44,540 nt of DNA from the sequence record MZ576218. The stretch is one strand, 5' to 3'. The notes under the pieces are model-generated. The model was given only the letters and a program-made list of their open reading frames with translations, did not search any database and was not told the DNA's origin. The stretch is from Escherichia phage vB_EcoS-phiEc4. Positions 11,667-39,040 of this stretch are shown here, piece by piece. Position numbers and translations under genes: made by a program. Numbering within the stretch: position 1 is the stretch's first letter; each line of letters opens with the position of its first letter.

Positions 11667-11671
11667 AACTA

Positions 11672-14165: not shown

Positions 14166-14272
14166 GTAGTGTGCTAGAATAATTTTGCGCCTAGTGTCGC
14201 ACACGAAAAGCGGGTGGTTCCCGTCTGGCGCATTTCCTTTAACCAGTAACCTCTTAACCAAAGGATTAAAGA

Positions 14273-24407: not shown

Positions 24408-24919
24408 CTGGTAAATTTCCTCGCAAGATACGTTATTTCTTCTTCACAAAGTTCATCAAGGTCGTTAGATACAAATCCTCTGGTGAATGTTTTGCTGAAC
24501 TTTAATCCAGCTTTATCATTGTCGCCAGCGCACACCCAGTCATACGGCAAAAGTGACATTTGCTGCCGTAAGTCAGCTGGTATGTTCGACCCCAATGCGC
24601 TAACTGCATTAAACCCGCAATTCATCAAAGCAACAGCTTTAAATATGCTTTCGGTAACAAATACCACCCCGCTACTTGGCAAATACTCAAGTCCCCATAA
24701 ACACGGCCTTGTTGTTCGGGTAAAGTACCGCGCGTCTTTAGGGTTTTTACAGTTCTTTTCAGCATGCGGCTTGTAATGCTGGTATCCTCGTAGCCTGCCG
24801 TCAAAACCCCACAAGTAGAATGTAGCAACGCCAGGGGCTAAGACTACCTGGAGACGGTCTGCGTCAAAACCTCGTGACAGCAGATGCGCCTTAAGTAGAA
24901 ACTCTTCGAAATCCATCAT
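24404..24919 (-). CDS. Toprim-domain protein (DnaG-like catalytic core)
   Basis: 171 aa; conserved Glu in VTESIF and DxD in CAGDNDKAG in Toprim order. Confidence 0.55.
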   Translation of the reverse strand: MMDFEEFLLKAHLLSRGFDADRLQVVLAPGVATFYLWGFDGRLRGYQHYKPHAEKNCKNPKDARYFTRTTRPCLWGLEYLPSSGVVFVTESIFKAVALMNCGFNAVSALGSNIPADLRQQMSLLPYDWVCAGDNDKAGLKFSKTFTRGFVSNDLDELCEEEITYLARKFTR

Positions 24920-26340
24920 TTCTTACTCCTACGTTTCATATAATTAAGTAGTTCATCCTGTACAGACCTTTTCTCGTCTGTACGCGCCGCAACAACCTCG
25001 TCCAGAGTGTCTTTAGCAACGATGTGATAAAGGAACACCGGGCGCTCGTGACCCGCCTGTTTCTGGCGGACTGGGCCTATGCGCTCAACAACCTGCAAAT
25101 AGTGCTCAAGGTTCCAGCCTTGCGAGATGAACGCCAGATGATGACCCCCGTCCTGTAAATTCAAACCATGCCCGGCTGACGCAGGATGCACGCATAAAAT
25201 CTCGATTTCCCCACGGTTCCACGCTTCCATCTGCTTGTTCCCCCTAGCGCCTTTGGCGAACGCCTGTGCCTGTGGGAATCGCTTAAGGATACGCTCCAGT
25301 TCGTGTTTAAACTGATAGGCTACCAGCAACGGCGCACCCTGCAACTCCTCAACAATCGACTCGAGCGCATCCAGTTTCGTGTCGTGCACTTTCTCCCAGT
25401 CTTTGGTCGCTTCGCCGTCTGGCCCGGATACATATACAGCACCAGATGCAATCTGCAAGCACTTTGAGGTCTTCGCCGCAGCGTTAGCCGCTTCAACTTC
25501 CCCGCTCTCCAGTTCTGCGAATAACTTCTCCTCCATATCTATGTACGCCTGACGCGCTTTCTTCGGCAGGTCTATTTCCACCGGTACGATAACAGGCGCT
25601 TCACAACCAAACCACTCGGCAGGGTCTATGGTCAGGCTGATGTCTTTCATCTTCTGATGAATCTCATTATCCGCACCCGGTCGTGCATGATACTCGCGGG
25701 CCATAGCCGATTTACCTTTCTGTACCGAGTTAAACCAGCGGTCGGTGAATGCTGTGTACGAAGAGCCGAGGCGCTCGCCAGCGTCGATAAACCAGTTCTG
25801 ACCCCACAAGTCTTTGAGGCCGTTTGGTGACGGTGTGCCTGTCAGGTTGATGAAACGCTTAACCTTTCCGAACGCAACCTTGCTGAGCGCCTTTGCCCGC
25901 TTGCTACCACCCGAACGGCTGCGGAACGATTTAAGCTTCGTGCTTTCATCGGCAACGATAACCGTAAAAGGCCAGTCGTCTTTGCCGTAGTAGTCAATTA
26001 GCCACTCGATAACTTCGTAGTTAGTGCACACCACGTTAGCATCTGACTCCAGCGCTGCGATGCGGCGCTTCTCCGAACCAGTTGCATCTACGACACGCAG
26101 ACAAGGGAATTGCCATTTCTCTTGTTCAGCAGGCCACGTACCGGACGCAACACGTAACGGGGCAAGGATTAACACGCGGTCCTCTTCCGTAAGCTGCCCG
26201 TTGCGGAACAGGCGGTTGAGCACCCACATAGTGGAGGAGGTTTTACCTCCCCCCATTCCGCACCAGATATTACAGCGCGGGTGTTGCAGCATGAACGAGG
26301 TCATGAGCTTCTGGTACTCGCGTCTTTGAAACTTACTCAT
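24916..26340 (-). CDS. SNF2-family helicase
   Basis: 474 aa; Walker A GMGGGKT, DExx box DESTK, motif III LTGTPSPN. Confidence 0.75.
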   Translation of the reverse strand: MSKFQRREYQKLMTSFMLQHPRCNIWCGMGGGKTSSTMWVLNRLFRNGQLTEEDRVLILAPLRVASGTWPAEQEKWQFPCLRVVDATGSEKRRIAALESDANVVCTNYEVIEWLIDYYGKDDWPFTVIVADESTKLKSFRSRSGGSKRAKALSKVAFGKVKRFINLTGTPSPNGLKDLWGQNWFIDAGERLGSSYTAFTDRWFNSVQKGKSAMAREYHARPGADNEIHQKMKDISLTIDPAEWFGCEAPVIVPVEIDLPKKARQAYIDMEEKLFAELESGEVEAANAAAKTSKCLQIASGAVYVSGPDGEATKDWEKVHDTKLDALESIVEELQGAPLLVAYQFKHELERILKRFPQAQAFAKGARGNKQMEAWNRGEIEILCVHPASAGHGLNLQDGGHHLAFISQGWNLEHYLQVVERIGPVRQKQAGHERPVFLYHIVAKDTLDEVVAARTDEKRSVQDELLNYMKRRSKK

Positions 26341-27277
26341 TTACCGCCCCCATGAATGCCTTTATAAATTCAGCGGCTACTTGCGGGACGATGGCATTGC
26401 CGTAACCGCGCAATCGTCCCACTCTGGCGGGTATCCCATTAGCCAGCGGGAATGCGCCGGGTTCAACTGGCCGGAATTTTCCATCCCGGCAGCCGAGCCA
26501 GTCAGCATCTGACCAGAAGCCGTGATGCGAATTGGTTGCGTTATCGCCGCTGCTTGTGCCACGTCTTGAGGTCCACCCTTCCTCTGAATCTCCGATAGTG
26601 CCCCCTCTAGTGTTCTCACGTTCTTTTCCCCGTCCGCACTGCGAGGAGTAGGCCAATTCGTCAGTTTTAGCCCCTGTTCCGTTGAGTAGTCCAGCCTGTC
26701 GAATGTTCTGTCCTTCCCGTCCTTGCGGATAACAGTCTCTCCGCTCCCTTTGTAATCGTTCGCGGTCGGTGTCGGCCAATTCGTGCGCACCAAAGAAGAG
26801 TCGTTCTCTTTTGTGCGGAGCGCCGACGCTACAAGCTGGGAGTACGGCAAACCCGACGGCGTAGTCTTCTCCTTCCAGGTGAGTTTGTAAATCGCACATC
26901 CACGATTTTGCAATTGCTGGCGCAACCTGTTCCCCAAAGAGGACTGGAGGGTGGCACTCGCTGATGAGGTCAAGGAATACGGGCGCGAGGTGTCTCGGGT
27001 CGAACTGTCCGAGTTGCTTTCCTGCCGTGCTAAACGGTTGGCAAGGCGGGCTTCCCGTCCAGAGAGGCGCATCTTCCGGAACTCCCGCAAGTCTGAGCGC
27101 GAGAGGCCAGCCGCCGATACCAGCGAAAAAATGACACTGGGTGAATCCGTCGAGGTCTTCTGGCTTAACTTCAGTAATGCTTCTTTCATCTACAACTCCA
27201 AAAGGTATGTGACCCTGTTTTATTAATTCACGCAGCCACGCGGCTGCGCCTTTATCCCATTCGTTGTAATAGTTCAT
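26333..27277 (-). CDS. DNA (cytosine-5) methyltransferase
   Basis: 314 aa; motif I FAGIGG, motif IV SPPCQPFS, motif VIII KRERLFF, motif X GNAIVPQVA; atypical low-complexity variable region. Confidence 0.7.
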   Translation of the reverse strand: MNYYNEWDKGAAAWLRELIKQGHIPFGVVDERSITEVKPEDLDGFTQCHFFAGIGGWPLALRLAGVPEDAPLWTGSPPCQPFSTAGKQLGQFDPRHLAPVFLDLISECHPPVLFGEQVAPAIAKSWMCDLQTHLEGEDYAVGFAVLPACSVGAPHKRERLFFGAHELADTDRERLQRERRDCYPQGREGQNIRQAGLLNGTGAKTDELAYSSQCGRGKERENTRGGTIGDSEEGWTSRRGTSSGDNATNSHHGFWSDADWLGCRDGKFRPVEPGAFPLANGIPARVGRLRGYGNAIVPQVAAEFIKAFMGAVNE

Positions 27278-27465
27278 TTTGCCACCAGAACTAACTCTTT
27301 ACGCCCGAACGCCGTAACGTTACCGGTTACATCTTCGATAACCAGTTTACCGTTCGACTCGACGTACACCGTATCAACGGCAACAGGCCGACGGGTCTTA
27401 ACGTTGAAAATCATGTCGCCAGGTACGATGTCACGTGCTGGTTTGCGGTCATATTCGTGTTTCAT
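27274..27465 (-). CDS. hypothetical protein
   Basis: 63 aa ORF, ATGA-coupled to methyltransferase gene; preceded by P_B promoter. Confidence 0.5.
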   Translation of the reverse strand: MKHEYDRKPARDIVPGDMIFNVKTRRPVAVDTVYVESNGKLVIEDVTGNVTAFGRKELVLVAK

Positions 27466-27495
27466 TTCTCAATTACTTATATTGTTGGTGTAGGA

Positions 27496-27783
27496 CTAAC
27501 TATAATAGTTCGCTATTAGGGCGTCAACCTGTTTAAACGAACCAACGACAAAAACATTAGCACCACGCTTACGCATCCGCTCGTGCTCCCGTAACTGGTG
27601 TGGATCCGGCTTCGTGCTTTCGTCTTTCTTTATCTCGACGAACCAGATGACGCCGCCGGGGAGAATTACCAGCAGGTCAGGGGCGCCGGAACGTCCTTCG
27701 TAGGAAAGTTTACGAACGAGGCCACCAATGGCCTCGAATCGGTCTTTTGCGTATTTCTGTATTTTGCCCTCAGGCGTACTCAT
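27496..27783 (-). CDS. VRR-NUC domain nuclease
   Basis: track ORF 27496..27819; likely start ATG 27783 with RBS GAGGGG; motif GAPDLLVILPGGVIWFVEIKK. Confidence 0.7.
   Translation of the reverse strand: MSTPEGKIQKYAKDRFEAIGGLVRKLSYEGRSGAPDLLVILPGGVIWFVEIKKDESTKPDPHQLREHERMRKRGANVFVVGSFKQVDALIANYYS
27499..27527 (-). promoter_or_regulatory. promoter P_B (TTGACG-17-TATAGT) with AATAG-TTCG-CTATT palindrome in spacer
   Basis: reverse complement reads TTGACGCCCTAATAGCGAACTATTATAGT; same layout as 31259..31287 and 34170..34198. Confidence 0.55.
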
Positions 27784-27868
27784 CCACACACCCCTCACGT
27801 TTCGTATGCGCAATACCACAGCGCGGACAGATCCGGCGGTCTTCTTCGTAGAACCAGTAAATTTTCAT
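27770..27868 (-). CDS. 32-aa Cys-rich micro-protein (MKIYWFYEEDRRICPRCGIAHTKREGCVDEYA)
   Basis: not in track; ATGA overlap with upstream micro-ORF; CxxC..H..C spacing. Confidence 0.25.
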   Translation of the reverse strand: MKIYWFYEEDRRICPRCGIAHTKREGCVDEYA

Positions 27869-27996
27869 TCCAGCACCCACAGATAAATTGTTACTAACAT
27901 ACCTAATACGGCAACCATCATGCCGTATTGACCCTCGTGACAGTAGACACCGGCGGCGAATCCCGCCAGTACCGCAATAATCAGTTTACTTGGCAT
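27865..27996 (-). CDS. 43-aa hydrophobic micro-protein (MPSKLIIAVLAGFAAGVYCHEGQYGMMVAVLGMLVTIYLWVLE)
   Basis: not in track; start overlaps 3' end of polymerase gene. Confidence 0.3.
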   Translation of the reverse strand: MPSKLIIAVLAGFAAGVYCHEGQYGMMVAVLGMLVTIYLWVLE

Positions 27997-30250
27997 ATCG
28001 CTTCATCTCCGCACCTTCAGCTACAAGAGGGAACCCCTCCGCCCATTCCGGCAATTCGCACATCAACCGCTCAAGCTCTGCTACATTGTATTCCGGTGAA
28101 TCTGGTGTCTCGCAGATAATCTCATCGTGTACGTGAAGTACAATCGGGTAGCCGTTTGCTTCTACGTTCAGCAGGGCATTAGCCAGCAAATCACGGCACA
28201 ATGCCTGAGTGCAGTTTTCCACCAGTTTACCGGAGTAGGTGTACTGGAAGCCCCACTGCCTGGTTAACTGATTTTCACCCTGATACTTGATGCGCACGTT
28301 AGTAGAAACTTTTCCGTCTTCGTCTGTCTCTTTTGACACGCTCAACCCGACGCCCGGGTATGACATAACGCGACCTGACGGCAACGTCATGCGCAACCAC
28401 CAACCAGCGACTTTGTTGCCGTTGTTGTCTGTTTCTACGTTGCGAGAAAACTTAACCCCGCGAGGGCCAGCGGTGAACTCTTTACCTGGATTGCGGATAG
28501 CTGCCATAGCGGCGTCTTCAATATCCCGCCAGAACGCTACTGTTTCCGGGTGGGACTCCCGCCACATACGCTTGATAGCGTCGCAGGTACGCCACACTTT
28601 CTTATCAAGAATATATGATGGTCGGTCATCTTTTTCACCGGGCCGCGGAGGTCGCTTTGCTTCCTGAATACGCGCCCATTCATAGCCGCGTGCAGTAGCG
28701 GCCCATATATGGTCCGGGAAAGTACCGTCCATTGTTTTAGCCATATCAACCAGGTTTAAGCCGAGGTTCTTAGCAAACTGAACGAAAGCACCGACACCAC
28801 CAGCATAGCCAAGTCCCAATTCACATGCTTTACCTATCTGGCGTAGGTCACTACGGCTTTCGAGAATGTAATCAGGGTCCATGCCGAACATCTTACCCGC
28901 GGTTACACAGTAAATATCCAATCCCGCACGGAAGGTATCGAGAGCGGTTTCTTCTCCCGCCAGCCATGCCAACCCGCGACCTTCAACGTTAGAGTAATCA
29001 GCTACGACAAACTTACGCCCGGCTTCCGGTATGATGCAGCTACGCACCGTCGATGCCGTTAGCTTGGCTACATCGAAACGGCGATGCGCGCGGCCTTTAA
29101 ACAACAGGTCGATTCCGTAGGACAATGGGTGTGTTACTCTCCACCAATCCTTCTCTGACATCCAGTCATAACGTACTTTCTTCTTTTTATTCTTCGGGTC
29201 GTCGTGATAGTACCCACGCGCGAGGTTCTGCGGCTGGAAGCCTTTACCTGCAAACCGTAACGTACGCTTAGCTCCACCATATTGTATGCAACCGCGACGG
29301 CGGTCGTCAGAAGAGCGGCCTAACAGCAGCGGGTTATATTTCGTGGACGCTGTTGACGCGGCCCCGAGGCGCATTTCGATAATCGTGCGGGCGTCGTCAG
29401 GTAAATCATCATCGGCCAGCAGGTCATTCAGCGTCGACTTCTGTGCGTTGTGTATGCGGTGTGCGGGGGCCAGTTCACGTAGAATAGGCAGAAAGTCCTT
29501 ACCGGTAAGCGAGCCGCCGTATTTACGTTGAGCTTCTTCCTGTAACTGTGCCTTGTGCTTCTCTACGGCTTCAATCGCGGCTTCCGCCAGTGCGACGTCA
29601 ACCTTAAATCCGCGGTCGTTGATTAACTGGTCAAGTTCCAGTACACGGTCTTCGAACTCGGAGTTACCCCAACGCGGCAGCTTATGGAAGACTTCACGCA
29701 TCGCAGTGATGTCGCTCACGGCGTACCTGATGAACATCGCCCACTCGTCAGGGTGAGTTTCTGCGGTGTAGCGGCGGATTTTGTAGTTCTTCGGCGTCGG
29801 TTTAGAGAAACGCTTAATCAGAGCCTTGCCGCGTTTATCTTTCGCGTTGTCTGCAGACACGCCCAGCACTTCGCACAGCGCATCAAGAGAACCCGGCAGC
29901 GCGTGACGGAACGCCCAAATCATAGTATCAATGGTGTTACTTACCGGAATATCAAAGCCCCAGCAGTGTTTCATGATTAGGCGATCGAAAAGTCCACCGT
30001 TGTGCCACACAATCTTGATGCGGCTGTTGGGCTTAACAAGGCGGCGCAGTGCGCGGTGCAAATCCCCCGGCATGTCGCTGCCGTCGGTGCAATCCCATAC
30101 CTGCACAGGCTCTTCGTCAAAAGCATAGGTACAGATAAGCACTTCGGTTGACGGGTGTTCAGCGTAAGCGTAGGAACCTACTTTCTTCAAATCGATGTCG
30201 CTGTAGGTTTCAAAGTCTAAGTAAAGCAATGTGTTCATAGTCTGTACCAC
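27986..30250 (-). CDS. DNA polymerase, family A with 3'-5' exonuclease domain
   Basis: 754 aa; Exo I LYLDFETYS; motif B-like RQIGKACELGLGYAGG; motif C VHDEI. Confidence 0.85.
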   Translation of the reverse strand: MVQTMNTLLYLDFETYSDIDLKKVGSYAYAEHPSTEVLICTYAFDEEPVQVWDCTDGSDMPGDLHRALRRLVKPNSRIKIVWHNGGLFDRLIMKHCWGFDIPVSNTIDTMIWAFRHALPGSLDALCEVLGVSADNAKDKRGKALIKRFSKPTPKNYKIRRYTAETHPDEWAMFIRYAVSDITAMREVFHKLPRWGNSEFEDRVLELDQLINDRGFKVDVALAEAAIEAVEKHKAQLQEEAQRKYGGSLTGKDFLPILRELAPAHRIHNAQKSTLNDLLADDDLPDDARTIIEMRLGAASTASTKYNPLLLGRSSDDRRRGCIQYGGAKRTLRFAGKGFQPQNLARGYYHDDPKNKKKKVRYDWMSEKDWWRVTHPLSYGIDLLFKGRAHRRFDVAKLTASTVRSCIIPEAGRKFVVADYSNVEGRGLAWLAGEETALDTFRAGLDIYCVTAGKMFGMDPDYILESRSDLRQIGKACELGLGYAGGVGAFVQFAKNLGLNLVDMAKTMDGTFPDHIWAATARGYEWARIQEAKRPPRPGEKDDRPSYILDKKVWRTCDAIKRMWRESHPETVAFWRDIEDAAMAAIRNPGKEFTAGPRGVKFSRNVETDNNGNKVAGWWLRMTLPSGRVMSYPGVGLSVSKETDEDGKVSTNVRIKYQGENQLTRQWGFQYTYSGKLVENCTQALCRDLLANALLNVEANGYPIVLHVHDEIICETPDSPEYNVAELERLMCELPEWAEGFPLVAEGAEMKRYAK

Positions 30251-30513
30251 GTCTGATAGTCTGCTTCTGTGAGATGGTCGTCGCGATCTTGTTTCTTGTT
30301 TTTACCGCGTTCTATGATTTCTGCCCAAGTCCGGTCTGGGTCTGTGTCTTCTATTAAATGTTTATGCTCCTCGCATGCATAGTGTTTATACCAGTCTCGT
30401 ACACCGTAAGCTGGAGGGTATTTAGTCATCCAAATTGCTCTAACTTTTTTACCTTCTGCCTTACAAAATTTGCAGTATGTGATGCGTCTGTATCTCTTAA
30501 GTTCCGCTGCCAT
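30235..30513 (-). CDS. hypothetical Cys/His-rich protein
   Basis: 92 aa with CKFCK...C..H spacing. Confidence 0.5.
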   Translation of the reverse strand: MAAELKRYRRITYCKFCKAEGKKVRAIWMTKYPPAYGVRDWYKHYACEEHKHLIEDTDPDRTWAEIIERGKNKKQDRDDHLTEADYQTWYRL

Positions 30514-30525
30514 TATTTTCGACCC

Positions 30526-30553
30526 TTAGTAAAAAGGCCCAATGAAGGGCCTT
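30526..30553 (-). terminator. hairpin AAGGCCC-TTCATT-GGGCCTT followed by TTTTTACT (minus strand)
   Basis: read on reverse complement downstream of 30573..31205. Confidence 0.5.
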
Positions 30554-30572
30554 AGTTAAACAGATTCAGATA

Positions 30573-31205
30573 TTAACCACGGCGACGACGTTCGCGGCGC
30601 GGTGCTTCATCTTCTTCGTCGTCTTCCAGGTCGTCGGTGCTCGCTACTACACTGGAGCCGCCGAAGCGTTTACCTTCGCCCATATACTTGATGCCGAGGA
30701 TGGTAGCGCACAGGTTTTTCCAATCTTTGTGCCACCATAATTCTACAGATACGTTTGCGATACATCCGCTATATACCTGCTCGCCTTCTATTTCTTTCCC
30801 GTCGATGTTGAAATCAGGCTCGGTTTGTTTTTCACCTTTAGCCGATGTCATAATCACCGGTTGGCGGTTGTTTGTAGCGCGGAAATACAGACCTTCTTCA
30901 AAATCCTCAATCGGATTATCTCGCATTGCCAGGTCACGGACGCAGCATTTGTCTGCGTGGTGGTCTACACCGTAGTTGGCCTTCATCCATTTCTCGGCAG
31001 CAGCGGCCCCGATTGCATCTGTTACAACTTCCAACGCGGTGTCGTAAAGCGCATCAATTTGAGGATGGTCAGGCTGCATAAGAACAGTAACCTGATACTT
31101 ACCCTTAATCAGTTTACCGGTTTTCTTGTCCTCAGAGTCGGCGGCACGTTCAAATACGTTAACCCAAGCAGTGTTTACTTTACGCAGATTCAGTTTAATA
31201 CCCAT
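30573..31205 (-). CDS. hypothetical protein, possible ssDNA-binding protein
   Basis: 210 aa with acidic tail DDLEDDEEDE; assignment tentative. Confidence 0.35.
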   Translation of the reverse strand: MGIKLNLRKVNTAWVNVFERAADSEDKKTGKLIKGKYQVTVLMQPDHPQIDALYDTALEVVTDAIGAAAAEKWMKANYGVDHHADKCCVRDLAMRDNPIEDFEEGLYFRATNNRQPVIMTSAKGEKQTEPDFNIDGKEIEGEQVYSGCIANVSVELWWHKDWKNLCATILGIKYMGEGKRFGGSSVVASTDDLEDDEEDEAPRRERRRRG

Positions 31206-31258
31206 CGTGATTTCTCGCTTTTAAGTTTACTCCGGGAGCTGCCCGGCCAGTGATTAGA

Positions 31259-31287
31259 ACTATAATAGCTAACTATTCATGTGTCAA
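31259..31287 (-). promoter_or_regulatory. promoter P_B (TTGACA-17-TATAGT) with AATAG-CTAA-CTATT palindrome in spacer
   Basis: reverse complement reads TTGACACATGAATAGTTAGCTATTATAGT. Confidence 0.6.
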
Positions 31288-31476
31288 ATAAAATTTTGCA
31301 ATAGGGATTATGTTCTCGAAATTAAGCATATTGGCCGGTTCGAACTCATCCTCTACAGGGTAGTATCGCATCATGGTACCGTTCAAGAACGTGAACGATT
31401 CCGAGTGTAGATACCCATCCCAGCGCCATACCATCAAAAAATCTTTATCAGTCGGCATTTCATTTACTTGAATCAT
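31273..31476 (-). CDS. hypothetical protein
   Basis: track ORF 31273..31506; likely start ATG 31476 with RBS GAGGAGGA and ATGA overlap. Confidence 0.45.
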   Translation of the reverse strand: MIQVNEMPTDKDFLMVWRWDGYLHSESFTFLNGTMMRYYPVEDEFEPANMLNFENIIPIAKFYLTHE

Positions 31477-32714
31477 TCTAAATCCTCCTCTGTAACTTGA
31501 TTCCACTCAGGACGTTTGTCATCCGCCGTTGCGACGCATGGCGCACCGGGCTTACGGGTAATGAAGTCTTTCAGTTCTTCTTCCGGTACAATTTTAACCG
31601 CTTCGGTCGGTGTCATAAGAACTACCTTTTGCAGCATAGTACCGTACTTCTCGAATACTGCATCGGTATCTTTCCACGCACGATTACCCGGGCGTCCTTC
31701 AACCAGTTTATACCCCGGCACTTTCTTACCGGAATGTAACGCAGCAGCCATAGCTTTCTCAACCTTGTCGATGTGCTGGCGCAACAACGGCAACTTCTCA
31801 TACTCAGCTACGAGTTGCTCTGGCGTAAGCTCAAGTGCAAAGTCGTCCTCCAGTTCTTCAGCCAGTACAGAGTTAACGGTTTTTGTACGCGCGGCGCATT
31901 GTTCAGAGAACCGGCACCACTGGCAACCATCTACCGACGGCTTAAAGTCTGACGCTTTCAGGTCCTTCTTGCCGCGGAAATAAGCATCAAGCGCTAACAG
32001 CGCGCGTTTCTGTGCGAACTTAGCGAACAGTTCCAGTCCTTCAACCGAGATGTCCCACTCTGTCGCACCCCCAGCGTAAGGCTGGAAGATGACCAGACGA
32101 ACGGTTGTTATGCTATAACGTCTCTTGAGTCGACGATAAACACCGAGAGCGTAAAGCATAAGCTGCTTGTTTTCTTTCGCTTCGACGCGATGCCGCCCGG
32201 TTTTCAGGTCGCCGATAATGAGCATGTGCTCGTCGGTGTTTGCCAGTTCCTGGACAGCAACGAGGTCAGCGGTTCCGAACGTCTCAACGCCTTCATACCC
32301 CGGATGCAATACCTCAGTAAGATTAACACGCATTTCCAGCTTGGCGTAAGTCGCTACGTCTATAATCGCTTTGCAGTAGTCGGTGTACTTGCGCACCTGC
32401 TCAATCATGTCCGCCGTAATCAGTACCGCGCCTTTCATCGGGCTGATTAGTGCCTTAATCTGGCCTTTGCCTTCATCCAGCACGTAAGCACCGACTTCAC
32501 GCTCTAACGGCAGCGCAGTTCCGCGAATATAAGCGTTGAGATGGACCTCAGCTATGGTGTGCATTGCCGTGCCTAATACAGCGGCTTTACCTGACGTGTT
32601 AGGGATATCTTTTTCACAGGCCAGTGATGCCGCGCAACTTAGCCACTTTTTAGCCCCTGACGGCGACAGTAAGGCATGTACATCGTTATTGCCGCCGCGT
32701 TCTTTAAGAATCAT
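31473..32714 (-). CDS. PD-(D/E)xK exonuclease, Cas4/RecB-like
   Basis: 413 aa; nuclease motifs GTADLVAV and IIGDLKTGR; C-terminal CQWCRFSEQC cysteine cluster. Confidence 0.7.
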   Translation of the reverse strand: MILKERGGNNDVHALLSPSGAKKWLSCAASLACEKDIPNTSGKAAVLGTAMHTIAEVHLNAYIRGTALPLEREVGAYVLDEGKGQIKALISPMKGAVLITADMIEQVRKYTDYCKAIIDVATYAKLEMRVNLTEVLHPGYEGVETFGTADLVAVQELANTDEHMLIIGDLKTGRHRVEAKENKQLMLYALGVYRRLKRRYSITTVRLVIFQPYAGGATEWDISVEGLELFAKFAQKRALLALDAYFRGKKDLKASDFKPSVDGCQWCRFSEQCAARTKTVNSVLAEELEDDFALELTPEQLVAEYEKLPLLRQHIDKVEKAMAAALHSGKKVPGYKLVEGRPGNRAWKDTDAVFEKYGTMLQKVVLMTPTEAVKIVPEEELKDFITRKPGAPCVATADDKRPEWNQVTEEDLE

Positions 32715-33058
32715 CGTAAACTCTCCAAATACAAGTTTAATGCCTGTAACTGTTCTTCTGTAGGAATGAAAGAATCATCGCGATGTAAGTCGCTTAACTG
32801 TTGCAACATTCCTGCGAACTGACGTCTTGCGTCAACAGCGTCCATGTGATGCTTTTCACTTTTATATATTAATGTTTTCGGGTAATCCTCAAGCCTGCCA
32901 GACGATTTATTCACGCGGAGCGCACGAGCTTCATGCACAATGTGAATGTACTTTTTGCCGTTTTGTAACACAGTAGCTACGCCGCTGCTCTTTCTGCGGT
33001 CGCCGACTGTGTAAACCTTGTCGCCACTACGCAGATTAAGCCACCATTTATCGGTCAT
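32711..33058 (-). CDS. hypothetical protein
   Basis: track ORF 32711..33073; likely start ATG 33058 (ATGA overlap). Confidence 0.45.
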   Translation of the reverse strand: MTDKWWLNLRSGDKVYTVGDRRKSSGVATVLQNGKKYIHIVHEARALRVNKSSGRLEDYPKTLIYKSEKHHMDAVDARRQFAGMLQQLSDLHRDDSFIPTEEQLQALNLYLESLR

Positions 33059-33327
33059 ACCCTGTTCTCCCACTGGTCAATTAAATGTCGTGTCTTATGG
33101 TCGCAGTGCATGGTCCACCCATACATCGACTCGAAGACATAAAAGTCAGGCTTGGCGAAAGTTGTGCGCTTAATCTGTGACACGTGACGGCCTATATCTT
33201 TAGGCCGTGGTACTTTTCCTAAGTACGCCATCTCTTCCATCTGGTGCGCACCGGACGGAGCACGCAATAGCCATAGCGCCTCTGTGTTATCCCGCCTGTC
33301 GACGGCTCGGTAGAGTTGGTAAATCAT
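33055..33327 (-). CDS. hypothetical protein
   Basis: 90 aa ORF with RBS GAGGG. Confidence 0.45.
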   Translation of the reverse strand: MIYQLYRAVDRRDNTEALWLLRAPSGAHQMEEMAYLGKVPRPKDIGRHVSQIKRTTFAKPDFYVFESMYGWTMHCDHKTRHLIDQWENRV

Positions 33328-33370
33328 AATTCCGACCCTCAGTTAAAGCGGCCCGAAGGCCGCGAGATAG

Positions 33371-33889
33371 TTATTCTTCTTCGAAATACTTGTTCTTGAT
33401 TGCTGTCAGGCGTTCCAGGTACTCAACCAGGTCTTCGTCTTTAATCGCGGCAATCTTCATCTTCTTACCTGTGAACTCTTCCAGCAGTTCATCAGAATCA
33501 TCGCACGCGGCATCGCTAGGACCTTCATTAATTGCATCGTCGATGGCCTGAATCTGGTCACGCAGAGACTTGTAATCGACTTCTTCTTTCTCTTCTTCCG
33601 GTTCTGGCGCAGGTTCCTCTACTTTAGCTTTACGCGGCTTGCGTTTTGGCTTCTCTTCCTCCGCCGGTTTAGTGTCAACTACGTCTTCACCCTCGACCGG
33701 GATTTCTTTTGTTTCTTCTTTTACAACAGTAGGCGTGATTGTTGCAGTTTCTGCGACACCACTGTCGACGTCTTTACCATATGGCGCCGTGATAGCCTTC
33801 GGCAGTTCAGTACGGCGTGCACTGTTCGCAGCAATCAGTTCATGCGCAACTACGAAACGTTCCAGTAATACTAAGAATTTCTCTAACAT
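33371..33889 (-). CDS. acidic low-complexity protein
   Basis: 172 aa, Glu/Lys/Pro-rich central region. Confidence 0.5.
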   Translation of the reverse strand: MLEKFLVLLERFVVAHELIAANSARRTELPKAITAPYGKDVDSGVAETATITPTVVKEETKEIPVEGEDVVDTKPAEEEKPKRKPRKAKVEEPAPEPEEEKEEVDYKSLRDQIQAIDDAINEGPSDAACDDSDELLEEFTGKKMKIAAIKDEDLVEYLERLTAIKNKYFEEE

Positions 33890-33913
33890 TATTTATTCTC
33901 CTGTTTATTTGGG

Positions 33914-34141
33914 TTACTCGCCGTCGCCTTCTGTAAGGCTATCGTCTATTAATTCAAATTTACCGTTTGGGTGTTGAATAGCTTCTTGCCCGCAATGGTC
34001 GCAGACAACAAGTTTATCGAACCCATCAAACTCGTCCCCGACTACGCAAGAAAGTACAAATTTATGTTTTGTGCACACTTCCTGCGATTCTCCGAAAATT
34101 GCTAGAAAACCTTTAGCTATGGCTCCCGTTATTGTGTTCAT
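33914..34141 (-). CDS. hypothetical Cys-rich protein
   Basis: 75 aa; C...C...CDHC spacing; RBS GAGGGG; preceded by P_B promoter. Confidence 0.5.
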   Translation of the reverse strand: MNTITGAIAKGFLAIFGESQEVCTKHKFVLSCVVGDEFDGFDKLVVCDHCGQEAIQHPNGKFELIDDSLTEGDGE

Positions 34142-34169
34142 ATCCGCCCCTCTCGTTTGGTATGGGCTA

Positions 34170-34198
34170 ACTATAATAGCGAACTATTCACATGTCAA
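34170..34198 (-). promoter_or_regulatory. promoter P_B (TTGACA-17-TATAGT) with AATAG-CGAA-CTATT palindrome in spacer
   Basis: reverse complement reads TTGACATGTGAATAGTTCGCTATTATAGT; divergent from the HTH gene promoter. Confidence 0.6.
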
Positions 34199-34222
34199 TG
34201 GGCTTTTCTAAAATAATTAATA

Positions 34223-34231
34223 TGGTACTAT
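34223..34231 (+). promoter_or_regulatory. extended -10 element TGgTACTAT upstream of the XRE-type HTH gene
   Basis: TGn-TACTAT about 30 nt upstream of ATG 34263; resembles the -10 half of the P_A family with degenerate palindrome AATAT-GGTA-CTATT. Confidence 0.4.
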
Positions 34232-34262
34232 TCACACATCAACTGACTAAGGAGTAATTGAC

Positions 34263-34478
34263 ATGCAACCATCCGAACTAGGCATCCGTGTAGAGCAACG
34301 CCGTAAAGAACTCGGCATCTCCCAGCGCCGTCTGGCTGTCCTGGCCGGTGTCTCCCAGGGCGCAATTAACCAGCTGGCTCTCGGTGTAACTCAGGACGTC
34401 CGCCCGGCAACGTTGTTTAAACTGGCGGAAGTGCTGGAAGTAGACGCTAAGTGGCTGGCGTTCGGTGAAGGGGCTTGA
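34263..34478 (+). CDS. XRE-family HTH transcriptional regulator (Cro/CI-like)
   Basis: 71 aa; helix-turn-helix GISQRRLAVLAGVSQGAINQL; RBS AAGGAG; divergent from replication-module promoter. Confidence 0.7.
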   Translation: MQPSELGIRVEQRRKELGISQRRLAVLAGVSQGAINQLALGVTQDVRPATLFKLAEVLEVDAKWLAFGEGA

Positions 34479-34495
34479 CGCCCCTTTCTTTTTAT
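34470..34495. terminator. bidirectional rho-independent terminator
   Basis: GGGGC-TTGAC-GCCCC followed by TTTCTTTTTATT; between convergent HTH gene (+) and 34492..34689 (-). Confidence 0.7.
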
Positions 34496-34689
34496 TGCAC
34501 CTTTATCGGGTATCTTTTGCGAAACTTACCTAACCCGCAGTACACGCTGTAAGCCTCTGTGTAACTGAACACAACATGATACCCGCGCCCATAAGGAACT
34601 ACGTTAAGAACTTCTACTACTTCGCCTCTGTGGTTGGTGTATTTATTACCTTTCAGTTCGTCGCTTACTTCTTTAAATTTACCGCTCAT
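34492..34689 (-). CDS. hypothetical protein
   Basis: 65 aa ORF ATGA-coupled to primase-helicase gene. Confidence 0.5.
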   Translation of the reverse strand: MSGKFKEVSDELKGNKYTNHRGEVVEVLNVVPYGRGYHVVFSYTEAYSVYCGLGKFRKRYPIKVQ

Positions 34690-36965
34690 TCCAAATCCTC
34701 CTCTGTCACTGTCAACATTTCATTCGGTTCGTATATTGTCTTTGGAATCTTGTTATCAGTTATTCTGGTGTTCAGCCTGTAACGACCTGGGATTATCTGA
34801 TTGTTTTCGTCAGTACCCGGAACAAGATACCCAGCCTCAACCATTTTCTTAATCTTCCCGCGTTCTATGGCTTCTTTGGAGTTAAACGCCTTTGCGTTGG
34901 GGTCAGACTGCGCGAGCTTATTCGCTGCGGATACCGTGATGCCCTCGTTGCCGTTGTAGGTCCCCTCCGCCAGTTCAAACGCCGCGAGTATCGTGGCCTC
35001 GGAACTGTTGACGGCGTTCTCTATGGTTTTACGTACATTTTGTTTACCTTCGTTAGTTAACCCTTCTTCCCTCTCTTTCTCCTCGTCGGTCTTGAATGGC
35101 TCGAAGCCCCACGGCATCAATACAAGCGCCTTGTGCGGCTCAGGCAGGTCGAGGTTTACTATTGTGCCGTATTCCTCTGTGCTACCGAGGAACTCAACCG
35201 CGCGGTACTCTTTCGGCGGCGGTGCTTCACGGAACTGTACAGACTCCAGTACCATGCCAACCGTCTTCTGTTGAGGACCGTGCTTAAATTTAGAGTGGTA
35301 TACGTTTATCTGACGGTCGGTAGCGCGTTCGATTGTCAGTTCCACGTCGACACCCGCATACAATGCTCCACTGCCGCGGGCTTTCTTTCCGCCCTTCGGA
35401 GTATGGTGAACGACACCGACAGCGGCTTTAGTTGCATCGCGCACTTCTTTCAGGATGGCGATAACTTTACCCATACCGATTGCCGTTGATGAACTGTTCT
35501 CGTCGAACTTATCAATCGTCAGGGCCAGCGTCTGGTTAAGGGTGTCGAAGGCAACCATGCCAATAGGTTCATCCCCTGCGGTTTCGCGCATCCTGCGGAT
35601 TAGAGCTGGAATTTTTTTATCACCATGCGTAGCGAGTATTTCGCCCATATCGATGACATGTACATAATCTTTACCTTCCTCGCCATATTTAGCCGCGAGT
35701 GCATCAATACGTGTTCGTGTAGCTGCACCACCCTCGCCGTCAATATAGAAATGGTGGCAACGTTGGGTGTCAGCCCCCGCAAACCGGTACCCGGCGGCGC
35801 TCAGGTACATCATCCCCAGCGTATAGAATGATTTGTACGTGCCGGATTCCCCGACAATATCCCAGATACAATCCGACGGCATGTACCCCTCAACGACGAA
35901 ATCAGCCTTTACCGGTTCTGGTAACTCGTCCTCTTCTTCAAGGTCTTCCAGGTCGTCGAGGCTGCATGAGACAGATTCACGCGCCCCCCAACCGATGGCC
36001 TCTGCGACTTCACTGAACGGCAGCCCGGTCGCATCGCACGCGTACTTCCACACCTCTTTCGGTGACAGGCCTTCTGTCGCCGTAATGTCTGTGTCGTGAA
36101 TCATGGTTACGTTTGGCGCTTCATACCCCTCGCGCGGGAAGCACAGCAGGAAGTCGTCCGGGCGCGGTGTCGGGTCGCTGTAGTTTTCGGCATGTTCCGG
36201 TGTGGCTGGCATCTTAAGGCCGCGCGGCGTCATGACGCCGCCGTACTCAAACGCCAGTGCTTCAAACGCGTCTGTAAACGCGGTGCGCAGTTCTTCCGGT
36301 ATCTGGTAATCCGATGCGCTGCTAACGTCAACGGCTGGGATGCCTTCCAGTAACTCGTTCGGGTCGATCAGGTCGTTGCGGCGCGACCAGATAACGGTAG
36401 CGCCGACCGGCGGCAGGTACATCGGCTGCGACAGAGTGAACCCGCTGCGGTCAGCGCCCATGCCTTCGAAGAAGTGCTCCAGCAAGCCATGACGAACACG
36501 GATGATGTCGCCGCCTTCAACCGGGCGGCTCAGCGGCATGACGACGCGAAAGCGCGGTGACTCATCGGTATGTGATGCCGTGGTGTAGAGACACATCGCC
36601 CGGCGGCTGCGATTAACCAGGCGCACCGCTTCCTGGTACTCTTCCGGTGTTGCACTGTCGAAGTCCAGATACGCCAGCGACGATTTGCTCACAGACGCGT
36701 CACAGCGATAGAAGAAGCCTTTACGCGCTTGCTTAAAGTCACCGGTTTCCGGGTCTTTTACAGTGCTGTGCGCAGAGTCGCACGCGGCAGTAATATAGCC
36801 TGGCGCTGTCTTCGGGTTGATCCCGTCACGAACAGCATCGAGCGGCTGGATTAACTCTTTCAGGTCATCCAGTGTTGCCGTGTGTGTGGTTCTGACGTTT
36901 ATATCCTTTTTCTCTGCCCGCGCGTTGCGACGTGACCACGAGTAGGATAAAATTACATCGGACAT
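34686..36965 (-). CDS. DNA primase-helicase (N-terminal primase-like region, C-terminal P-loop helicase)
   Basis: 759 aa; Walker A GESGTYKS in C-terminal half; large N-terminal domain. Confidence 0.65.
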   Translation of the reverse strand: MSDVILSYSWSRRNARAEKKDINVRTTHTATLDDLKELIQPLDAVRDGINPKTAPGYITAACDSAHSTVKDPETGDFKQARKGFFYRCDASVSKSSLAYLDFDSATPEEYQEAVRLVNRSRRAMCLYTTASHTDESPRFRVVMPLSRPVEGGDIIRVRHGLLEHFFEGMGADRSGFTLSQPMYLPPVGATVIWSRRNDLIDPNELLEGIPAVDVSSASDYQIPEELRTAFTDAFEALAFEYGGVMTPRGLKMPATPEHAENYSDPTPRPDDFLLCFPREGYEAPNVTMIHDTDITATEGLSPKEVWKYACDATGLPFSEVAEAIGWGARESVSCSLDDLEDLEEEDELPEPVKADFVVEGYMPSDCIWDIVGESGTYKSFYTLGMMYLSAAGYRFAGADTQRCHHFYIDGEGGAATRTRIDALAAKYGEEGKDYVHVIDMGEILATHGDKKIPALIRRMRETAGDEPIGMVAFDTLNQTLALTIDKFDENSSSTAIGMGKVIAILKEVRDATKAAVGVVHHTPKGGKKARGSGALYAGVDVELTIERATDRQINVYHSKFKHGPQQKTVGMVLESVQFREAPPPKEYRAVEFLGSTEEYGTIVNLDLPEPHKALVLMPWGFEPFKTDEEKEREEGLTNEGKQNVRKTIENAVNSSEATILAAFELAEGTYNGNEGITVSAANKLAQSDPNAKAFNSKEAIERGKIKKMVEAGYLVPGTDENNQIIPGRYRLNTRITDNKIPKTIYEPNEMLTVTEEDLE

Positions 36966-37023
36966 GTTGTATTTCCTTCAGCAAATAATTTGGCCTCGGC
37001 GTTCACCGCGTCGGGGCTTTCTT

Positions 37024-37314
37024 TTATCTTTTAGCCAGACATTCCATCAAATGTGCGTACTTACGATAATAATCTGCGACAATCTCATCACCGAAATACT
37101 GATAAACGTAGGATAGGTGGTCGGAGACATCGATGGAAGCCGACATTGTGCTGAGTCTTCTTAGACTAATCGACTGCAATTCTTCTGTAACGCAAAACGG
37201 CAAATATGAGTCCAGTTTACAGGAAACGTTAAAACACAACGCATACTCACCTTGCACTAAATAGACCATATAAGCACTGTCATTTTCTTTATCGTGGAAA
37301 ATTACACCTTTCAT
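37024..37314 (-). CDS. hypothetical protein
   Basis: 96 aa; ATGA overlap with upstream HTH gene. Confidence 0.45.
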   Translation of the reverse strand: MKGVIFHDKENDSAYMVYLVQGEYALCFNVSCKLDSYLPFCVTEELQSISLRRLSTMSASIDVSDHLSYVYQYFGDEIVADYYRKYAHLMECLAKR

Positions 37315-37481
37315 TTCACGTTCTCCTTAATCCACGCTTCAACTTTATTACGGTCAAATGTTCCTGGTAAACGGCGCCCCATTACTTTAACGCTGCAATC
37401 AGGAAACTTTCCACTCTTAATCCAGTTATTGATTGTCTGGCGGGTGACGCCGATTAATTCTGCAACTTCATTGATAGTCAT
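37311..37481 (-). CDS. AlpA/excisionase-type HTH DNA-binding protein
   Basis: track ORF 37311..37571; likely start ATG 37481 with RBS AGGAGA; motif TINEVAELIGVTRQTINNWIK. Confidence 0.55.
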   Translation of the reverse strand: MTINEVAELIGVTRQTINNWIKSGKFPDCSVKVMGRRLPGTFDRNKVEAWIKENVK

Positions 37482-37510
37482 CTCGCGCTCTCCTGTGTAA
37501 TATGTATCGA

Positions 37511-37539: not shown

Positions 37540-37586
37540 CCAAAACACCACGCAAAGTTACTAAAATACAAAAGATGCTACTGGTA

Positions 37587-37615
37587 TTGACTTTTACTTG
37601 AAAATATGCTAAGCT
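37587..37615 (+). promoter_or_regulatory. promoter P_C copy 2 (TTGACT-17-TGcTAAGCT, extended -10)
   Basis: same architecture as 4997..5025. Confidence 0.55.
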
Positions 37616-37620
37616 TCACT

Positions 37621-37858
37621 GAGCTTGTGAGATATCGCAAGCGACCGCGGAGCGGCAGGGAACGCAACGCGTGCCATTAGGCACTTGAGTGTAGTTCCGC
37701 TGACGCTTTCGGAAGGGTCAAAGTCTATTGTTAATCCCGCCTAAATATCCAAGTCACGGATAATTAAAAGTTTCTATAGTTGCCGTGAGCAAGGTAGAGA
37801 GTACTTCACTCCGCTGGGGTGGGCTAACGCCCACCCACTGCGTTGCGTACTCTTTTAA
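37621..37858 (+). ncRNA. promoter-proximal structured RNA element, copy 2
   Basis: core 37621..37725 homologous to 5032..5135 with compensatory substitutions; 3' region has GC-rich hairpin GGGTGGGC-TAAC-GCCCACCC nested in AGAGTAC/GTACTCT helix followed by TTTT. Confidence 0.5.
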
Positions 37859-37895
37859 GAAACGAAAGAATCACAGCGGCAACGTAACTATTCTC

Positions 37896-37924
37896 TTGCA
37901 CACCCCAACATAATAGGATACTAT
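37896..37924 (+). promoter_or_regulatory. promoter P_A copy 3 (TTGCAC-17-TACTAT) with AATAG-GATA-CTATT palindrome
   Basis: TTGCACACCCCAACATAATAGGATACTAT; followed by leader GAGACAGAGGAG and gene 37959. Confidence 0.6.
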
Positions 37925-37958
37925 TCACTTATCGAAACGAGACAGAGGAGTGAGGGTT

Positions 37959-38150
37959 ATGTTTAAGAAGGGTCAGTTGGTTAAAACTAAACGCGGAGGG
38001 CAATATGTATTAGTGTTGCAGGACGAGAGCGAGTATGACGAGGATAATCTGGTTGACGTATGGGGTCTGGTAAGAAAGAAAACTGGGTTCGCCTCACGCG
38101 ATAATTTAGAACTCATCGGCAACAATTTTAAATTCAAAGGGGTGAAGTGA
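37959..38150 (+). CDS. hypothetical early protein
   Basis: track ORF 37950..38150; ATG 37959 with RBS GAGGAGTGAGGG. Confidence 0.5.
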   Translation: MFKKGQLVKTKRGGQYVLVLQDESEYDEDNLVDVWGLVRKKTGFASRDNLELIGNNFKFKGVK

Positions 38151-38365
38151 TGGAAGAATTAATTTGTATTGAATCCCGCCAGGATGTGCAGGATTGGTTT
38201 GTGAAAGGTAACAAATATTCGTCAGGAGTATATTACGACGGCCGTCGATACGTTTTAGATGAAGACGGTGATGAATGGGATTTAGAGGACACTGTGGGCG
38301 AGACTTTAACCGTTAGTTTTCTTCAATGTTGTTTCCGCATCATTCACAACGGCATCGAATCATGA
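38150..38365 (+). CDS. hypothetical early protein
   Basis: track ORF 38147..38365; ATG 38150 overlaps previous stop. Confidence 0.5.
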   Translation: MEELICIESRQDVQDWFVKGNKYSSGVYYDGRRYVLDEDGDEWDLEDTVGETLTVSFLQCCFRIIHNGIES

Positions 38366-38447
38366 GGCTCGTGCCGACGACTCTGAGGGAGGTTGCCGTG
38401 GATAATATTTTAATTGTCAGCGCTGTTTATGTGGGGTGGAGGTTGAT

Positions 38448-38642
38448 ATGAGTCCATATAATGAATTCCGCTTACGCCGTCTTGTTGGTGGGCTGCGCGC
38501 CGCCGAGTTTGGCGTTGAATGTTGGGAAAAGGCGAAGTACACCCCATGGAAGTCGTGGAATTTGGCCCACGCTAAGGCGGTAGCGCAGTACCGGGAGTAC
38601 AAGTTAAATAGTTTCCTAAAGCACCACGGAGTAGAGCTATGA
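38448..38642 (+). CDS. hypothetical early protein
   Basis: track ORF 38436..38642; ATG 38448 with RBS GGAGG. Confidence 0.5.
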   Translation: MSPYNEFRLRRLVGGLRAAEFGVECWEKAKYTPWKSWNLAHAKAVAQYREYKLNSFLKHHGVEL

Positions 38643-38782
38643 GAGAAGCATTCGAACGGTGGGCCGTCGTCGAGGGTCTGCCGGTTAACAAGGGTTCAAA
38701 GAAAGAGTACCTGAACGTTAAGACGCGTCTTGCGTGGCGGGCGTGGAAAGCTGGTGTGCAGTATGTGATGAATACGAGGTGA
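38639..38782 (+). CDS. 47-aa hypothetical protein
   Basis: not in track; ATGA overlap with previous gene. Confidence 0.4.
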   Translation: MREAFERWAVVEGLPVNKGSKKEYLNVKTRLAWRAWKAGVQYVMNTR

Positions 38783-38971: not shown

Positions 38972-39004
38972 TGTTCAATAGTTTGGGATTTTACTGAGTG
39001 ACTT

Positions 39005-39040
39005 ACGCTGCTACACAGCAGCGTATCATTTTTCTCATTT
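39005..39040 (+). terminator. rho-independent terminator
   Basis: ACGCTGCT-ACAC-AGCAGCGT 8-bp stem followed by ATCATTTTTCTCATTTTTG. Confidence 0.65.

Follow-up and report, generated by a model that had tools for sequence, protein, structure and literature searches.

A previously uncatalogued structured leader RNA of Guernseyvirinae phages with a candidate role in antitermination

To our knowledge, control of RNA polymerase by an RNA that acts without a protein factor is known essentially from one family, the put sites of phage HK022 and their lambdoid relatives. Here, we characterize a structured RNA element that occurs twice in the genome of Escherichia phage vB_EcoS-phiEc4 (sequence record MZ576218), with copy 1 at positions 4997–5234 and copy 2 at positions 37587–37856; the whole 44,540-nt stretch that was analysed is called the window. 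The HK022 put RNAs confer factor-independent readthrough of terminators in cis, which is blocked by rpoC mutations in the β′ zinc-binding domain. Sigma-dependent pause elements have been described at putL (PMC9378689) and at the promoters of the AlpA and Q systems (PMC9371919). Pseudomonas AlpA has eight helices and contacts DNA through residues 128–142 (PMC9371919). The phage element that we describe is a previously uncatalogued RNA motif, although both its location and its candidate job are of kinds already known.

A structured RNA in two copies

The window is a Kagunavirus (Guernseyvirinae) genome. A blastn comparison of positions 37541–37930 with the whole window aligned 37587–37730 to 4997–5139 (80% identity, E-value 6e-25), which locates a second copy where a preliminary description of this sequence had placed it. 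The R1 covariance model, built from 26 distinct sequences with a hand-checked structure, found two cores in the window and nothing else above noise (118 bits at 5031–5130 and 91 bits at 37620–37721, with the next score at 11 bits). The preliminary description had also taken the whole unit of 200–240 nt to be duplicated, but clear homology ends after CTATTG (37730). Beyond that point, the best local alignment between the copies is the word GTTTCTAT(A)GTT, whose score is reached by 107 of 2000 shuffles (p ~0.05). Because only this marginal word is shared past CTATTG, the longer duplication is not established; the demonstrably duplicated part spans ~145 nt and comprises the promoter, the core and CUAUUG.

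Pattern scans of IMG/VR and of a phage collection sorted the element into eight sequence types. Copy 1 is of type A, and type G is a further variant of it; variants of copy 2 make up types B to F, and type J is the form present in phage Jersey and most Salmonella Jerseyviruses. Type A cores are near-identical across Kagunaviruses and some Jerseyviruses, and R1 recognizes type J at 35–39 bits (E-value ~1e-6).

Both times, a conserved promoter-like sequence of the host sigma70 type lies directly upstream of the core, and each copy stands at the head of a plus-strand gene block, in agreement with the earlier account. The putative copy 2 promoter (37587–37615, plus strand) has a −35 hexamer TTGACT at 37587–37592, a 17-nt A/T-rich spacer and an extended −10 element TGCTAAGCT at 37607–37615 (TGnTAAGCT), while the copy 1 promoter (4997–5025, plus strand) has TTGACT, a 17-nt spacer and TGATAAGCT. 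In copy 2, the −35 hexamer matches five of the six consensus positions and the −10 hexamer TAAGCT matches only three but carries the TGn extension; a consensus promoter scanner made no call at this site since the −10 matches only three. The hexamers and spacing are kept in all element types, with TACGCT as the type J −10 hexamer. From the position of the −10 hexamer, we predict that the copy 2 transcript starts at ~37621–37623. A second −10-like hexamer, GAGCTT (NANNNT), occupies 37621–37626 on the plus strand, the predicted positions +1 to +6. Type J repeats its −10 hexamer exactly, 3 nt downstream (TACGCT-ACC-TACGCT), and the corresponding type A arrangement is TAAGCT followed by GAGCTT. This repeat may be a sigma70-dependent promoter-proximal pause element, bearing in mind that it is seen in two sequence states only, that NANNNT is common by chance and that the start site is itself a prediction.

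Minimum-energy folds give the same two hairpins, P1 and P2, in both copies. The copy 2 core (~100 nt, plus strand) begins with P1, a 5′-terminal hairpin at 37623–37642 (GCUUGUGA-GAUA-UCGCAAGC) in which all alignment cells pair, followed by a GA linker and by P2, a long irregular hairpin at 37645–37712 that is outlined by the folds and the covariation counts. The basal helix of P2 combines CCG/CGG and GGAGCG/CGCUUU and leads into a purine internal loop; the remainder of P2 comprises CAG-GGAAC/GUUCC-G-CUG, conserved internal loops (3′ side UUGAGUGUA, 37685–37693) and a variable apical hairpin (37671–37684). A conserved single-stranded tail then runs from 37713 to 37730 as AAGGG, N7 and CUAUUG (37725–37730); GGAAGG and (C/U)UAUUG are retained in nearly all types, type J included. 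In the copy 1 core (5031–5130, plus strand), P1 lies at 5034–5054 and P2 at 5057–5121, again followed by the tail.

Behind the copy 2 core, an A/U-rich spacer (37731–37797) with the word GUUUCUAU (DNA GTTTCTAT, 37770–37777) and a UGCCGU motif leads to a compound hairpin that ends in UUU (37798–37856). Its construction is as the preliminary description had it: GGGTGGGC-TAAC-GCCCACCC at 37817–37836 is enclosed by an AGAGTAC/GTACTCT helix at 37798–37853 and followed by TTT, which in the transcript gives an outer AGAGUAC/GUACUCU stem around an inner GGGUGGGC-UAAC-GCCCACCC hairpin. The compound hairpin has a fold energy of −28.6 kcal/mol and is terminator-like with a short U-run.

Covariation strongly supports the claim that the element is a structured RNA. 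In alignments fitted to the R1 model, which biases them toward the structure, 97.5% of cells pair across 29 distinct sequences and 8 pairs show double changes; in a set with type J added, pairing extends to 96.1% of cells, and double (compensatory) changes are seen at 13 of 28 pairs, three of them in P1 (ACGCU/AGCGU). For both sets, none of 500 shuffles reached the observed covariation score, and sliding the partner column lowered pairing to 29–44%. Several positions take three different Watson–Crick pairs (C-G, U-A and A-U in the basal helix; U-A, A-U and G-C in the middle helix). Folding the full leaders of the two copies gives z-scores of −3.6 and −2.4, and folding the cores alone gives −3.5 and −2.2.

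The loops, bulges and tail are near-invariant, and the helices drift by compensatory change. Unpaired nucleotides are thus more conserved than helices, which is the signature of a specific macromolecular partner. Close variants differ by insertions or deletions of 1, 2 and 4 nt, and no open reading frame of at least 40 amino acids crosses either core in the window. The fixed loops, compensating helices, small indels and lack of a reading frame together argue that the element is an RNA and not a coding sequence; from the conserved G-U pairs, the strand that folds is the plus strand. Several GenBank records annotate 'hypothetical protein' reading frames over the element (for example, Jersey_08 2066–2257); relatives differ there by frameshifting indels and compensatory substitutions, which argues that these reading frames are spurious. 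When the window was scanned with Rfam 15 at gathering thresholds, only int-alpA (14184–14248) was matched, and scans of copy 2, copy 1 and a Jersey-type copy at E ≤ 10 returned only noise (13–21 bits).

Distribution and genomic setting

At the copy-1 site before the spanin gene, 186 phage records have a type A element and 269 have type J. Compared with the ~461 records that encode a capsid protein at least 80% identical, these counts make the copy-1 site essentially universal in Guernseyvirinae. An 801-bp region around copy 2 matches 115 phage records, all of them Kagunavirus-type siphophages of E. coli or Raoultella within Guernseyvirinae. Copy 2 occurs in many Kagunaviruses, and at least 17 IMG/VR contigs carry two copies; an R1 scan with filters off found no copy 2 in phage K1H or in Jerseyvirus LSPA1. 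Copy 1 is the ancestral, universal copy, and copy 2 is a lineage-specific accessory duplicate found in only part of Kagunavirus. In K1H, the interval 34646–36759 is a 2.1-kb stretch without annotated genes where other Kagunaviruses have the AlpA-like gene (see below), copy 2 and the first small genes, and R1 finds no element there.

Duplication carried the promoter and core together, as a unit, to a new setting, where they were retained. Type E cores are found at both sites, in different phages, which implies exchange between the copies. Together, duplication of the unit as a whole and the presence of type E at both sites suggest that it works independently of the downstream gene.

In the collections scanned, we found the element only in this group of phages. 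Capsid relatives outside the subfamily (Stenotrophomonas phage AXL3 and Achromobacter phage kuwaak) have contiguous head genes with no room for the element and no element, and pattern scans of IMG/VR returned only Guernseyvirinae-sized contigs and chance matches. We rejected a host or prophage origin, as 5,426 E. coli genomes gave no match. Among 100,044 species genomes, the only match was a Kagunavirus fragment mis-binned in a 'Bacillota' metagenome-assembled genome. This 6.2-kb contig (JAEWLW010000073.1, 'Bacillota bacterium'), which carries an AlpA-like gene, a type C element, the 34-mer promoter described below and small genes, is likely a binning contaminant. A search of the literature on put-like or non-coding RNAs in Guernseyvirinae found nothing relevant.

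Copy 1 directly precedes the spanin–scaffold–capsid genes, in a plus-strand block that runs from spanin (5250) through scaffold and capsid (6532) to tail genes ending at 11666. Its hairpin, GCCCUGC-UUUAAG-GCAGGGC followed by UUUACUUAU (5206–5234, plus strand), is called by a terminator scan, shows a compensatory U-A to C-G change in relatives and is separated by 15 nt from the ribosome-binding site and start codon of spanin (ATG, 5250). We found no other promoter between this hairpin and the spanin, scaffold and capsid genes, and late transcription must therefore cross it. A terminator also precedes each copy-1 promoter (4339–4359 in the window, with an equivalent in Jersey).

Copy 2 had been described as the head of an early plus-strand block. 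It does head a block, but one that is not simply early: ~1 kb of small genes (from 37959) and an intrinsic terminator (39004–39025) are followed by holin (41164), endolysin (41363) and large terminase (1–1251), and the plus strand continues with portal, head morphogenesis and decoration genes. A third plus-strand block extends from the tail chaperones at 14273 through the tailspike to 24241. The minus strand holds the replication genes (24404–37484) and two small islands (4432–4776 and 11695–14121). Clean intrinsic terminators stand inside the plus-strand blocks at 39004, 2756, 4339, 7597, 11671 and 24247. The plus-strand terminator at 39004–39025 consists of TACGCTGCTACACAGCAGCGTA followed by TCATTTTT, and LSPA1 has a similar hairpin at ~38483–38505. 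Perfect bidirectional terminator hairpins at 4339–4359 (AAAGCCCC...GGGGCTTT) and 11671–11690 (AAGGCCCC...GGGGCCTT) mark the boundaries where plus-strand blocks meet the small islands of minus-strand genes.

The hairpin behind the element differs between types. In type A, the stem GCCCYGC...GCRGGGC runs into UUUACUU, whereas the type J stem, GCCCGGC...GCCGGGC, runs into UUAGCG and so lacks a U-tract. The compound hairpin with UUU behind it is shared by types B and E, and types C and D have an unrelated GGUGCC-UUC-GGCACC hairpin followed by GUUCGUUUCG. The U-run behind the compound hairpin (UCUUUU, then AAG) has decayed to CUCCUUU or CUCUUUA in relatives, and a terminator scan that requires at least five T in eight positions did not call the compound hairpin of copy 2. 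In type C and D copies of copy 2 (L043, L052, L054, L058, L063 and L077), a CTCA microsatellite of ~3 to 6 repeats (CTCACTCACTCA...) sits between the element and the GGUGCC hairpin.

Upstream of copy 2, a divergent minus-strand gene (37311–37484) encodes a 57-amino-acid excisionase/AlpA-like helix-turn-helix protein (PHROG phrog_66, E-value 4e-11) and is the first gene of the leftward replication operon. The closest solved structure found by phmmer against the PDB is the Xis-like 4j2n (E-value 0.07). The minus-strand promoter-like site previously described in front of it, TTGCTT-17-TATACT at 37539–37511, is present, and a related phage keeps its hexamers with a different spacer. The replisome of the phage is T7-like, with a gp2.5-like single-stranded DNA-binding protein, a primase-helicase and a family A polymerase. 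Among the screened proteins of the window, there is no phage RNA polymerase and no recognizable N-, Q- or AlpA-type protein, and sequence-based searches linked the other uncharacterized proteins to no PDB, Pfam or PHROG entry.

The plus-strand promoter-like site TTGCAC-17-TACTAT at 37896–37924 also exists as described and proved to belong to one of three near-identical 34-nt copies (37896–37929, plus strand, 40 nt after the compound hairpin), where none would be expected by chance in the window; in the blastn comparison above, it aligned with the other two copies separately from the element. The other two copies, at 4897–4930 and 14132–14165, point leftward and lie back-to-back with structured-leader promoters, and the third lies just downstream of copy 2. 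Because their spacer CCCCAAYATAATAGG is conserved as well, a regulator site is suggested at these 34-mers.

The third plus-strand block, with the tail genes, is headed by an int-alpA RNA (Rfam RF02996; 14184–14248, plus strand; 36.6 bits against a threshold of 35.8) that directly follows an extended −10 promoter-like site, TGCTAGAAT (14173–14181), and is followed by UUUCCUUU. Consequently, all three plus-strand blocks are headed by a structured leader. LSPA1 has a homologous int-alpA fold at ~16510–16560, with a compensatory change in the outer stem, no U-run and a score below the Rfam threshold. The divergent control region of LSPA1 (37800–38660, within ~970 nt of non-coding sequence) combines a promoter-like TTGACA-17-TGTAAGTT site with a hairpin-rich leader of another kind, a hairpin that resembles a terminator (38079–38106), one degenerate and one intact 34-mer and a G+C-rich, structured-looking stretch (38180–38480); it has no Rfam match.

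Candidate functions

The preliminary description had proposed, from the anatomy of the two copies, that RNA controls transcription of the plus-strand blocks, and we consider this a reasonable inference. The reading that we favour, tentatively and with a likelihood somewhat short of even, is that the element is a cis-acting antitermination or antipausing leader RNA, either autonomous like put or assisted by a factor. The nascent folded RNA would stay with the transcribing host RNA polymerase, alone as in HK022 put or, as in lambda nut, together with a host or phage factor. The RNA-bound polymerase would become resistant to pausing and termination, so that transcripts from the element's promoter would pass the adjoining hairpin or terminator (37798–37856 and 5206–5234), and the same polymerases would also pass the intrinsic terminators in the rightward operons (39004, 2756, 4339, 7597 and 11671). 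Polymerases that start at the 34-mer promoter at 37896 would transcribe no element and would be halted by the first terminator they meet. At the start of the transcript, the −10-like repeat may hold the polymerase while the RNA folds.

This interpretation is suggested by a start-proximal fold with fixed unpaired residues, by the portability of promoter and core, by independence from the sequence of the following hairpin and by the need for late transcription to traverse hairpins and terminators. The two-hairpin layout close to the predicted start, which resembles that of putL, also speaks for it, as does the lack of a phage RNA polymerase and of a recognizable N-, Q- or AlpA-type protein among those screened. 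The hairpins behind the element are unrelated in sequence among copy 1, copy 2 and types C and D, and P1 and P2 are intact in the minimum-energy folds of full leaders. Both observations point to an action that is independent of the particular terminator, rather than to a sequence-specific switch.

Several observations weigh against antitermination. The published transcriptome of Kagunavirus K1B4 reports gene-level time classes and leaves non-coding regions unresolved. Searched with R1, the immunity region of HK022, which includes putL and putR, yields no match (E ≤ 1), and the core has ~99 nt compared with ~74 for put. In type J, found in 269 phage records, the hairpin is followed by UUAGCG and not by a U-tract, so an adjacent terminator is not universal. 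The copy 2 unit closes with a strong hairpin and has another promoter 40 nt further on, a layout that suits a self-contained small-RNA gene equally well. Copy 2 is also dispensable, given its absence from K1H and LSPA1. Finally, the intergenic terminators of phage late operons can be plain attenuators that require no antitermination.

The autonomous version makes a bolder claim, to which we give a rather low probability. It would make the element a second, evolutionarily unrelated class of put-like RNA, in which a nascent RNA of ~100 nt alone renders an enterobacterial polymerase resistant to termination and is deployed, as a portable promoter-plus-RNA module, at the structural and lysis operons of ~455 genomes.

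The same anatomy could serve mRNA processing or stability, an explanation that we judge unlikely but that draws on several of the features above. In such a leader, P1 would shield the late mRNA from decay that starts at the 5′ end and P2 (~23 bp) would be an RNase III-type site, setting mRNA half-life or translation; the early and late RNase III sites of T7 and the pnp and lambda N leaders are its models. P1 begins 1–3 nt from the predicted start in both families, the length and interrupted helix of P2 appear to resemble phage RNase III substrates, the module is portable, and it heads the most-needed mRNAs, those for scaffold and capsid. A simple stabilizer, however, needs no strict conservation of loops, bulges and GGAAGGG...UAUUG across types A to J, and the strong hairpin and second promoter after copy 2 are left unexplained.

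It is also doubtful, though compatible with much of the layout, that the product is a discrete small RNA acting in trans. Such an RNA would measure ~200–235 nt if it ended at the hairpin, or ~105 nt if a 5′ fragment were cut at UAUUG, and it would act as a decoy for a protein or regulate by base pairing. A promoter and a terminator-like 3′ hairpin come with each copy, the promoter right after copy 2 can serve the downstream genes, and the conserved single-stranded motifs GAGUGUAG, GGAAGGG and CUAUUG could be protein-binding or seed sites. Its position in the leader would be a by-product, as for lambda 6S RNA or StxS from PR′–tR′, and a short terminated PR′ transcript that acts as a regulatory small RNA is a precedent (PMC7547250). 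Against this proposal, type J has no U-tract and type A has only UUUACUU, so that most transcripts probably continue into spanin, and no match in E. coli genomes hints at mimicry of a host RNA.

A riboswitch or protein-sensing attenuator, with P2 as an aptamer whose occupancy decides termination at the hairpin, would account for the order of promoter, structured domain with fixed internal loops, hairpin and gene, and short complementarities between GCGGNG in the P2 5′ strand and a downstream (C/U)GCCGU or CUCCGC can be seen by eye. We regard it as very improbable. The hairpin lies 75–85 nt past the domain without overlap and is unrelated in sequence between the copies, P1 and P2 are unbroken in the folded full leaders, the alternative pairings considered show no covariation, across types, with the variable position in GCGGNG, and no Rfam riboswitch is matched even at E ≤ 10. 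Least credible is a transcription-primed replication origin like T4 oriF/oriG, the T7 primary origin or ColE1 RNA II: it would suit the T7-like replisome, the ~70-nt A/T-rich spacer after the G-rich tail and the coincidence of the divergent copy 2 region with the cumulative GC-skew minimum, but that minimum merely tracks gene orientation, the universal copy lies among structural genes outside the replication region, and the conserved G-U pairs and start-aligned hairpin suit an RNA effector, with nothing indicating DNA synthesis.

Three narrower candidates were tried and rejected. Pairing of the P1 loop AGUAUG with a downstream CAUACU in a pseudoknot is complementary in the commonest type A, but the downstream partner varies without compensation (CGUAGU, CAUAGG, CAUAUU and CAAAGU). 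A mini-reading frame with GGAAGGG as its Shine–Dalgarno sequence and a UUG start has long spacing and 1 to 18 codons, and loses the UUG in one copy-2 sequence (L058). Leader peptides over the copy-1 terminator (AUG AUA AGG ...) lack a Shine–Dalgarno sequence, and type J does not conserve them. A fourth candidate, an antiterminator in which GCGGNG pairs with CGCCGU, UGCCGU or CUCCGC, is not supported, as there is no covariation with the variable base.

Relation to known systems

The element is found throughout a large group of phages of E. coli and Salmonella that serve in therapy and biocontrol, and its description corrects spurious 'hypothetical protein' annotations in several GenBank records. 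Should its role turn out to be that of a small RNA or of a leader for processing or stability, it would still be the main cis-element before the capsid operon and merit an RNA-family entry; it would be considerably more interesting if autonomous modification of the polymerase were shown.

The comparison with known leaders helps to place it. Like the T7 RNase III sites and 5′ stabilizing hairpins, the element has an interrupted hairpin of ~20–23 bp that contains internal loops, and its 5′ terminus is itself a hairpin, but the conservation of its loops and tail exceeds what a stabilizer needs. The int-alpA RNA (RF02996) occupies an equivalent position in the same genome (14184–14248), after an extended −10 site; its fold, two small hairpins enclosed by a stem, is unrelated, and the element does not match RF02996.

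With lambda nut, the Bacillus EAR element and other antitermination leaders, it shares the arrangement of a leader whose RNA could act in cis to reprogram the elongation complex. Nothing like boxA or boxB of nut is present: CUCUAUUG agrees with the boxA core at only five of eight positions, and type J is unmatched. A boxA-like site, weak in type A and absent in type J, was rejected as a candidate. No N-like protein was recognized in the window and no Rfam match was found for the element, a further difference from nut and EAR.

The lambda PR′–6S RNA–tR′/Q arrangement and Pseudomonas AlpA at PalpB resemble the phage loci in combining a constitutive-looking promoter, a leader of ~200 nt and a terminator-like hairpin with lysis and structural genes, and they also have a −10-like hexamer in the initially transcribed region (PMC9371919), which for the phage element is a predicted region. 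Q and AlpA, however, work from a site in the DNA and do not depend on a folded leader, while in the phage element it is the RNA fold that is under selection. The AlpA-like protein of the phage has no N-terminal nozzle segment, its helix-turn-helix begins at residue 2, and phmmer matched it to no AlpA or Q chain in the PDB. We rejected a mechanism of the Pseudomonas AlpA or Q type through the neighbouring gene, whose product is a bare 57-amino-acid helix-turn-helix unlike the solved AlpA or Q chains.

The closest parallel is HK022 put. We located putL and putR in HK022 as an inverted repeat, and putL matched every pair and residue number of PMC9378689. The two systems differ in that the element core has 99 nt rather than ~74, with P2 about twice as long; in that put comes from the early operons of a lambdoid phage, whereas the element comes from the structural and lysis-to-head blocks of a virulent siphophage; and in that some relatives have one copy of the element only, copy 2 being missing. 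Since R1 finds nothing in HK022, the likeness is one of architecture and position and not of homology. It is nevertheless extensive. As with putL and putR, the genome has a pair of copies, and each stands at the head of a long operon with terminators inside it (PMC9378689). In both systems, and by prediction in the element, the RNA is at or close to the transcript's 5′ end, with a −10-like hexamer near the start, and the phage uses the host RNA polymerase; it folds into two adjacent stem-loops, the second irregular with conserved unpaired bases, and its copies differ by compensatory changes. The putL fold is a hairpin, one nucleotide and an irregular hairpin, and the Guernseyvirinae element is a hairpin, 1–2 nt and an irregular, larger hairpin. 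The element is thus an unrelated, well-supported RNA structure in a put-like position, and a second candidate for the reprogramming of a bacterial polymerase by nascent RNA.

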